Shown in pieces: positions 39,378 to 39,932 of a stretch of DNA of 64,000 bases. The stretch is from sequence record MN850566.1. The stretch is one strand, 5' to 3'. Under the pieces are notes generated by a model that did not search any database, was not told where the DNA came from, and saw nothing but the letters and a program-made list of their open reading frames with translations. How positions within the stretch are numbered: position 1 is the first letter of the stretch; the number at the start of each line of letters is the position of its first letter. This stretch comes from Escherichia phage garuso. The position numbers and the translations under genes are program-made.

Positions 39378-39863
39378 ATGATTTGTGCTAACAAAGATTG
39401 CGGAAATGAAGCCGTTAAAGGTGGAAAATTTTGCTCACGCTCTTGTTCTGCAAAAGTGAACAACAAGAAACACCCAAAGAGAAGTCAGGAAGGCTCTTGC
39501 CATTCATGCGGAAAGGTAACGCCAAAAGCGAGAAAATACTGTGACGAATGTATTGCAGGTGGAGTCATGAAAAAACATAAGACCCATCATGAAAAAAGCA
39601 AAGCCAAATCACTGCACGTTAAAAAGTCTCGTGATAGACTGAAGAAGGCTTTAGTTGATTACAAGGGTGGTTGTTGTTCAATTTGTGGTTACAATAGGTG
39701 CATAAAGGCTCTAGAGTTTCACCACTTAGACCCTAACACAAAAGACTTCACAGTAGGTCAAAAACACTACTCACTGGCTACAATGCAGTCTGAAGTTGAT
39801 AAGTGTGTCTTGCTTTGTGCAAATTGCCACAGAGAAGTACATGAAGGGGTAACAATGCTGTGA
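39378..39863 (+). CDS. HNH homing endonuclease-like protein inserted in the tRNA cluster
   Basis: ATG 39378 inside track ORF 39369..39863; Cys-rich zinc-binding N-terminus and C-terminal HNH motif (…CCSICGYNRC…EFHHLDPNTKDF…CANCHREVHEG); TGA stop lies inside the 5' acceptor stem of tRNA-Ile. Confidence 0.6.
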   Translation: MICANKDCGNEAVKGGKFCSRSCSAKVNNKKHPKRSQEGSCHSCGKVTPKARKYCDECIAGGVMKKHKTHHEKSKAKSLHVKKSRDRLKKALVDYKGGCCSICGYNRCIKALEFHHLDPNTKDFTVGQKHYSLATMQSEVDKCVLLCANCHREVHEGVTML

Positions 39864-39932
39864 AAGCACATATGGATGTGCATTCGGCTGATAACCGAAA
39901 GGCAGAAGGTTCGAATCCTTCTCACAGTACCA
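39857..39932 (+). tRNA. tRNA-Ile (anticodon GAT)
   Basis: Acceptor GCTGTGA/TCACAGT, D-arm GCAC…GTGC, anticodon stem TTCGG/CCGAA with loop CTGATAA, T-arm GAAGG-TTCGAAT-CCTTC, CCA encoded; overlaps HNH stop codon. Confidence 0.75.

Follow-up and report, generated by a model that had tools for sequence, protein, structure and literature searches.

Why does an endonuclease gene end inside the transfer RNA (tRNA) gene that follows it? The question is raised by a locus in Escherichia phage garuso (sequence record MN850566.1), a Felixounavirus of which a stretch of 64,000 nucleotides (the window) was analysed. In this stretch, an open reading frame (ORF) for an HNH endonuclease lies between the genes for tRNA-Met(CAT) and tRNA-Ile(GAT), and its TGA stop codon falls within tRNA-Ile. 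A previous sequence-only reading had proposed a homing-endonuclease insertion at a tRNA boundary, and this proposal is supported by the comparison of empty and filled sites and by the patchy distribution of the insert among related phages. The ORF most probably belongs to a free-standing HNH homing endonuclease cassette that was inserted between tRNA-Met and tRNA-Ile, is transcribed with the tRNA precursor and borrows its stop codon from tRNA-Ile.

The region shares 96-99% identity with Felix O1-like phages, Escherichia phage L27 being the best match, and 25 tRNA genes, all on the plus strand, are clustered at 38045-43522 of the window. The ORF starts just past tRNA-Met and stops in the 5' strand of the tRNA-Ile acceptor stem, as the sequence-only reading had stated, and all coordinates hold (Table 1). 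Seventeen nucleotides separate the end of tRNA-Met (39360) from the ATG (39378), and an alternative in-frame start, GTG, is located at 39369. The description of tRNA-Ile as a perfect cloverleaf stands in part: ARAGORN draws the cloverleaf and Rfam supports the gene, but G1 and U72 form a wobble pair, and AA stands at positions 8-9 in place of the usual U8. When the segment 39361-39932 was folded, this cloverleaf formed with the UGA inside the acceptor helix. It had also been claimed that translation and tRNA processing share nucleotides, which is literally true, as the predicted cut of ribonuclease P (RNase P) between 39856 and 39857 lies 4 nucleotides before the stop codon.

The origin of this arrangement can be read from phages that lack the ORF. 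A segment of 494 nucleotides is absent from all eight insert-free genomes read directly, which include RPN213, NJ12, REP8, Tf and LNA1 as well as phages with a second tRNA-Ile sequence (allele 2) such as adrianh, and it is present in 11 records. Insert-free phages read CTGAACCTCCA-AT-GCTGTGAAAGCAC, with a spacing of 2 nucleotides between tRNA-Met and tRNA-Ile. The filled site of the window reads CCTCCAAT/TTATCGGTGATACTTATG...GGGGTAACAAT/GCTGTGA, where slashes mark the borders and CAAT stands on both sides of the block. At the left border, CCTCCAAT is followed by GCTGTGA in the empty site and by TTATCGG in the filled site, and the 4-nucleotide CAAT repeat allows the junction to be set at any point inside it. 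Five insert-free records with the tRNA-Ile sequence of the window (allele 1) were read directly and showed CCA-AT/AA-GCTGTGA, with a 2-nucleotide spacer. In KEP3, the right repeat is CAAA, and a matching AA spacer occurs in the empty sites of REP8 and Tf. All ten readable insert junctions are identical. Homing genes are recognised by precise presence or absence at one site among close relatives, and such a pattern, a 494-nucleotide block versus a 2-nucleotide spacer, was found here. Relatives without the insert had been named as the check on the proposal; empty sites were found and outnumber the filled ones, rather than being missing as expected for an ancestral ORF.

The same comparison explains the position of the stop codon. 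A Shine-Dalgarno sequence and an ATG come with the insert, which lacks a stop and ends six codons past the last catalytic histidine. The last three codons of the ORF, ATG CTG TGA, consist of the pre-existing spacer and nucleotides 1-7 of tRNA-Ile. In the insert-free phages REP5-12, Tf and LNA1, tRNA-Ile is 100% identical to that of the window, and GCTGTGA, including the TGA, is present there; hence, the stop codon is borrowed and the tRNA is unaltered. tRNA-Met is likewise near-identical (0-2 substitutions) between insert-bearing and insert-free genomes. Judged by the empty-site comparison, the overlap of the ORF with tRNA-Ile is not a coincidence of two independent features. Patchy distribution and an insertion that splits a conserved target are shared with intron- and intein-borne homing endonucleases. 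Unlike these, the insert interrupts no gene and sits between two intact tRNA genes, and an Rfam search of 37500-44000 gave no group I or group II intron RNA.

The distribution of the insert was assessed among 267 phage records that match a 1.2-kb region around it, only ten of which span the region fully. Many of the remaining records align discontinuously, over 57-59% of the query; the 494-nucleotide block is missing from those that were read directly. Insert DNA was found in only 11 records, while 35 records with the same tRNA-Ile allele are without it. Two alleles of the insert could be distinguished, which differ by about 17% at the DNA level. Allele A (at least 97.6% identity) occurs in Felix O1 (two records), FO1a, L27, Sl26, S.Kent 1-2-1, OPT-SAL01 and MET-P1-301, and the second allele (83-87% identity) in Henu11, KEP3 and Henu12. 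The flanks of the window are 97.5-98.7% identical to those of the insert-free phages RPN213, NJ12, REP8 and Tf, and 83-93% identical to those of the insert-bearing phages Felix O1, Sl26, KEP3 and Henu11. Moreover, MET-P1-301 combines a Felix O1-type (allele A) insert with a KEP3-type left flank. As judged from pairwise identities rather than a full phylogeny, the presence of the insert does not track the relatedness of the flanks, an incongruence by which homing genes are also recognised. The overall pattern is as expected for a free-standing HNH homing endonuclease gene. Several of the GenBank records compared do not annotate the ORF as HNH. MG065664, a record bearing the name Campylobacter phage A132, matches the region at 98.5% with an identical tRNA-Ile and is probably mislabelled or a contaminant.

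Both alleles bear the mark of selection on the protein. The ratio of nonsynonymous to synonymous substitution rates (dN/dS) between them is 0.14-0.16, with dS about 0.7, and the ORFs of the window and Felix O1 differ by 2 nonsynonymous and 10 synonymous changes; these low values indicate that the HNH protein is under purifying selection. In addition, the Shine-Dalgarno GGTGAT is kept in both alleles while adjacent bases vary. The copies of OPT-SAL01 and MET-P1-301 are frameshifted, as one A is missing from an A6 run (GAAAAAAGC) at about 39601-39606 in window coordinates. These two phages have different sequence backgrounds, and the ORF is annotated in neither record. The shared deletion reflects either decay through recurrent inactivation or a homopolymer sequencing error; the frameshifted copies are consistent with the decay phase of the homing-endonuclease life cycle.

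The protein itself has the make-up of an HNH nuclease. It matched PHROG HNH families, which have no curated cut-off, with E=7.6e-37 for phrog_2255 and 4e-23 and 1.3e-19 for others. The complete CxxC...HH...N...CxxCH...H motif is present, with a core reading CCSICGY...EFHHLDP...LLCANCHREVH, and thus provides the catalytic His...Asn...His and the CxxC zinc ligands that define the HNH (beta-beta-alpha-Me) superfamily. The catalytic and zinc-binding residues listed in Table 1 are invariant in homologues from seven phages. The core aligns with the HNH motifs of McrA and of the LtrA En domain; in searches of solved structures, only weak matches were obtained, the nearest being these same motifs of McrA and LtrA, and a search of NCBIfam with the protein gave no match. 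The N-terminal part contains two Cys4 modules, recognised by cysteine spacing in the translation (C3, C8, C19, C23 and C41, C44, C55, C58), which resemble zinc ribbons and may bind DNA; the Pfam double zinc ribbon model matched this part below threshold (E=0.015). A lysine-rich linker joins these modules to the HNH core. No second copy or paralogue was found when the 64-kb window was searched with the protein by tblastn. The PHROG match, the full motif and a dN/dS of 0.14 indicate that the ORF is a real gene and not a chance ORF.

Table 1. Coordinates of the HNH cassette, its tRNA neighbours and further features of the region, in window positions.
Feature	Position	Strand	Remarks
HNH endonuclease ORF	39378-39863	+	161 codons + TGA; PHROG match; Felix O1 orthologue
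Shine-Dalgarno-like GGTGAT	39368-39373	+	4 nucleotides upstream of ATG; read from sequence
Putative DNA-binding N-terminal part	39384-39551	+	two Cys4 zinc-ribbon-like modules; predicted function
HNH catalytic core	39672-39842	+	residues 99-155; C100, C103, H115, H116, C147, N149, C150, H151, H155
TGA stop of HNH ORF	39861-39863	+	nucleotides 5-7 of tRNA-Ile acceptor stem, 5' strand
Inserted segment, 494 nucleotides	39363-39856	+	absent from eight insert-free genomes read directly, present in 11 records
Left CAAT	39359-39362	+	last two bases of tRNA-Met CCA + original AT spacer
Right CAAT	39853-39856	+	keeps native -4 to -1 leader of tRNA-Ile
tRNA-Met(CAT)	39284-39360	+	upstream neighbour; ARAGORN, Rfam 56.4 bits; encoded CCA 39358-39360
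tRNA-Ile(GAT), allele 1	39857-39932	+	ARAGORN; Rfam 60 bits vs gathering score 29
Sigma-70-like promoter match TTGACA-17-TATAGT	39948-39976	+	strong, 11/12 consensus matches; 16 nucleotides after tRNA-Ile; predicted function
Protein gene, DUF7338 (Pfam)	41605-42162	+	ends 8 nucleotides before tRNA-Gln 42171
Protein gene, DUF7217 (Pfam)	~42611-43348	+	ends 1 nucleotide before tRNA-Ser 43350
471-amino-acid gene, DUF2828 + DUF7788 (Pfam)	36464-37879		just upstream of tRNA cluster; in relatives 'RNA-binding protein' or 'vWFA protein'

How such a gene would be expressed follows in part from its surroundings. A consensus scan of the plus strand from 38403 to 39948 revealed no promoter-like site, hence none inside the insert, and no terminator was found between 38403 and the promoter match downstream of tRNA-Ile. 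Since the insert lacks a promoter of its own, the HNH gene is most likely part of a polycistronic tRNA precursor. The downstream promoter match likely marks where the transcription unit of the HNH gene ends and suggests that the tRNA cluster is split into several such units.

From these elements, a mechanism can be proposed. A minimal cassette, consisting of a ribosome-binding site, a start codon and coding sequence that reaches just past the last catalytic histidine, was set into the 2-nucleotide spacer between tRNA-Met and tRNA-Ile and would be transcribed within the tRNA precursor. Translation would read through the spacer and the first tRNA-Ile nucleotides (AT/G CTG TGA) and stop at acceptor positions 5-7. 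On co-infection, the enzyme would cut insert-free relatives, and the cassette would be copied into them by recombinational repair. Given the geometry of the locus, RNase P would likely cut off the stop codon when it matures the 5' end of tRNA-Ile, leaving a non-stop mRNA ending in ...ACA AU. In bacteria, rescue of non-stop mRNA by transfer-messenger RNA yields a tagged protein that is degraded. Full-length enzyme would then be made only from unprocessed precursor, and expression would stay low.

Comparable arrangements are known from other phages. The ORF44/Felix01p085 product of Felix O1 (NP_944863.2, 'HNH endonuclease') is the ortholog at the same site, the FO1a/Felix O1 protein being 98.8% identical to that of the window. 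In RefSeq NC_005282, the Felix O1 coding sequence (25030-25515) overlaps tRNA-Ile (25509-25584) by 7 nucleotides, with no structural difference from the window. Six HNH genes were counted in the Felix O1 genome paper, where the tRNA overlap, the empty site and the activity of the enzyme are not mentioned (PMC3185647). Two further annotated HNH genes of Felix O1 (ORF45 and ORF47, at 2752-3144 and from 4062 onward in the extracted stretch) lie in the same tRNA cluster and are absent from the window.

In phage T5, hegC and hegD of the F-Tfl group are, like the window gene, free-standing HNH genes in a tRNA cluster and on the tRNA strand. Their stops also lie inside the next tRNA, at positions 12-14 of tRNA-Ser2 (hegC) and 21-23 of tRNA-Gln2 (hegD), and the window gene shares two traits of this type, namely the same strand as the tRNAs and a stop within the 5' part of the downstream tRNA. 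Homology to the window protein was ruled out for hegC and hegD (BLASTP E>1), which belong to a NUMOD4-type HNH lineage. Because similarity is lacking, the stop-in-tRNA arrangement of T5 and the window is regarded as convergent.

The segB gene of phage T4 also lies between tRNA genes on the same strand, and homing of SegB, together with co-transfer of adjacent tRNA genes, was shown experimentally (PMC2330249). It differs from the window enzyme in its GIY-YIG fold and in its recognition site, a motif of the T-psi-C arm. For segB, it was proposed that the transcript is cut between the last sense codon and the stop during tRNA-Arg maturation, which would limit expression, and down-regulation via precursor processing was suggested for the T5 enzymes as well (PMC2330249). 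As a literal stop-in-tRNA precedent, segB was rejected, its TAA lying 5 nucleotides upstream of tRNA-Arg; only the proposed processing mechanism is shared.

Closer relatives of the window protein show the arrangement more widely. Zinc-ribbon HNH homologues of the same clade, with 36-43% identity, were found in unrelated phages, namely the T5-like phages SA001 and AmPh_EK80, Pseudomonas phage M5.1 and Synechococcus phage S-WAM2, all in tRNA clusters. Their stops fall at positions 8-10 of tRNA-Ala (SA001, AmPh_EK80), 13-15 of tRNA-Gly (M5.1) and 8-10 of tRNA-Asn (S-WAM2), and they differ from the window gene in tRNA partner and N-terminal modules. A survey covered the 80 best IMG/VR loci encoding relatives of the window HNH protein, with tRNAs called by ARAGORN. 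At least two tRNAs lie within 1.5 kb in 68 of these 80 loci. The HNH stop falls at tRNA positions 1-25 in 37 of the 80, the ORF ends 0-9 nucleotides upstream of a tRNA in 10 more, and at least 14 distinct tRNA/offset combinations are represented. After removal of identical junctions, the stop lies inside a tRNA at 28 of 41 distinct HNH junctions near a tRNA versus 4 of 37 for other ORFs of at least 80 amino acids in the same loci (Fisher p=2e-7). The 5' side is looser, with a median distance from upstream tRNA to start codon of 65 nucleotides versus 17 in the window. A preference of the clade for a TAG stop at U8A9G10 was considered and is not claimed: this stop is the commonest by locus count, yet it accounts for about one third of distinct tRNA/offset combinations, as expected for a random frame. 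It seems that each ORF simply ends at the first stop codon encountered by its frame in the tRNA. No description of the stop-in-tRNA pattern for this HNH clade was found in a literature search.

Several points weigh against the interpretation of the locus as a homing cassette with a functionally coupled stop. Curated Pfam HNH models score below threshold on the protein (PF21368, 15 bits vs 23; PF01844, 11 vs 21.4), and the searchable literature gives no cleavage, homing or expression data for this enzyme. Insert-free allele-1 copies could in principle also result from deletion between the CAAT repeats, so that the change at a given node may have been a loss. The family-wide counts and the p value of the survey ignore shared ancestry. 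Finally, two other protein genes in the tRNA cluster end 8 nucleotides and 1 nucleotide before the next tRNA, and the overlap may need no regulatory meaning because tight packing alone could explain it.

This last point leads to the strongest rival, a serious contender to which we give somewhat less than even chances: the gene would be a working homing gene with a dispensable tail after the final histidine, the spacer would have been lost, and the overlap would be a by-product of compaction with no regulatory role. Besides the tightly packed non-HNH genes just mentioned, homologue tails past the last catalytic histidine range from 3 to well over 100 residues of any sequence, and stops are spread over tRNA positions 5-21 with approximately random frame usage, as the TAG share shows. 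Compaction does not readily account for the far greater frequency with which HNH ORFs of the clade end in a tRNA compared with other ORFs of the same loci, nor for the 5' side of the cassettes, which is not comparably tight. Furthermore, stops at or in tRNA 5' ends occur in three unrelated endonuclease lineages. Another reading is that the missing stop is a selected, clade-wide design, in which cassettes home to the exact 5' boundary of a tRNA and RNase P maturation switches the mRNA to a non-stop form. This is a speculative and rather unlikely proposal. If true, tRNA maturation would be coupled to the control of mobile elements across the clade, in phages of hosts from enterobacteria to cyanobacteria, and the nuclease would be made from a short-lived, unprocessed precursor only.

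The tRNA-Ile gene itself varies among these phages. In Felixounaviruses, the slot that follows tRNA-Met and two bases is occupied by one of two unrelated tRNA-Ile(GAT) sequences. The window type (GCTGTGAAAGCAC...) occurs in 46 records, and the second type (TGTGGGTTAGCAT...) in 105, including Erwinia phages of the same subfamily. In three records of the second type read directly, the tRNA occupies the same slot without an insert (1764-1839 in the extracted stretches), and the allele swap does not seem to extend beyond the tRNA gene. When IMG/VR was scanned for exact matches to the tRNA-Ile sequence, only two loci were returned. The insert is found in 11 of the 46 records with the window-type allele versus 0 of 105 with the other (Fisher p=8e-7). 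As the cassette abuts the tRNA without a spacer, its transfer would take the window-type tRNA-Ile along, and the association therefore fits either targeting of the insert-free window-type allele or conversion of the other allele. Insert-bearing and insert-free genomes of the same allele are not distinguished by any substitution in tRNA-Met or tRNA-Ile; if the junction is the target, only the disruption of the site by the insertion can confer self-immunity. A C/A difference in the variable loop of tRNA-Ile (GGCAG vs GGAAG) was tried as an insert-linked immunity marker and rejected, since insert-free REP5-12, Tf and LNA1 are identical to the window.

The link to one of two tRNA-Ile alleles might also suggest that the nuclease persists owing to a benefit for the phage, through diversification or amplification of the tRNA cluster or through exclusion of competitors, as with SegB of T4 and T6, and is not purely selfish. 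In 2026, SegB was reported to be statistically associated with tRNA genes and to amplify tRNA-containing segments, thereby defeating Septu defence (PMC13096335). Strong purifying selection would likewise fit a benefit. This explanation nevertheless appears improbable, as only about one quarter of the genomes carrying the cognate allele, and no genome carrying the other, have the insert, frameshifted copies exist, and the window shows a single copy with no repeat amplification.

A further alternative holds that the ORF is ancestral to the tRNA cluster: it would not have been acquired by homing, and most relatives would have lost it through precise deletion. The flanking CAAT direct repeat could mediate exact deletion, the two alleles are old, given their dS, and two copies are frameshifted. 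However, the three directly read genomes with allele 2, the type that Erwinia phages also have, likewise show the 2-nucleotide spacer, exact deletion via a 4-nucleotide repeat would have had to happen independently dozens of times, and flank similarity cuts across presence and absence of the insert; we give this view little credence. That the ORF is a decaying, unexpressed remnant, as the missing promoter, the frameshifts in OPT-SAL01 and MET-P1-301 and the sub-threshold Pfam scores might suggest, is very improbable, since the copy in the window is unbroken and retains every catalytic and zinc ligand, a dN/dS of 0.05-0.16 is incompatible with long-term neutrality, and the Shine-Dalgarno is conserved in both alleles.

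Other features of the tRNA cluster were also observed. A tRNA-like element at 40181-40259 scores 31.7 bits with the Rfam tRNA model (gathering score 29), while ARAGORN does not report it. Its loop CTTCTAA (TCT) resembles an anticodon loop, and a CCA is encoded. The element is annotated as 'tRNA-OTHER' in REP8 and lies roughly where an ordinary tRNA-Arg of unrelated sequence is found in Sl26, MET-P1-301 and Henu11. Between tRNA-Asp and tRNA-Lys, a gap of 430 nucleotides (38775-39203) contains no called tRNA and folds far better than shuffled sequences (z=-5.0). It includes a perfect inverted repeat of about 22 bp (~39065-39090 with ~39178-39200) and a partial tRNA-like T-arm (38946-38996, Rfam 22 bits), and may encode a stable structured RNA comparable to the ones known from annotation of the T5 and T4 tRNA regions; some relatives annotate an unlikely minus-strand ORF there. 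The 471-amino-acid gene upstream of the cluster (Table 1) may be of interest for its position beside tRNAs and tRNA-like structured RNAs.

Overall, the novelty of the garuso gene is modest, as it is an ortholog of an annotated Felix O1 gene, and its arrangement is known from T5 and has been discussed for T4. For annotation, ORFs in phage tRNA clusters should be expected to end inside tRNAs, and trimming or dropping them should be avoided. For the biology of these phages, the locus offers a clean natural system, in which empty and filled sites, two endonuclease alleles and two tRNA-Ile alleles are available in cultivable Salmonella and E. coli phages. Such a system is suited to asking whether an HNH enzyme targets the junction of two tRNA genes, whether tRNA alleles are co-transferred on homing, and whether RNase P limits expression of the nuclease. 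The survey suggests that the RNase P question spans an entire clade of phage HNH genes, so that an answer obtained in Felix O1 would generalise.

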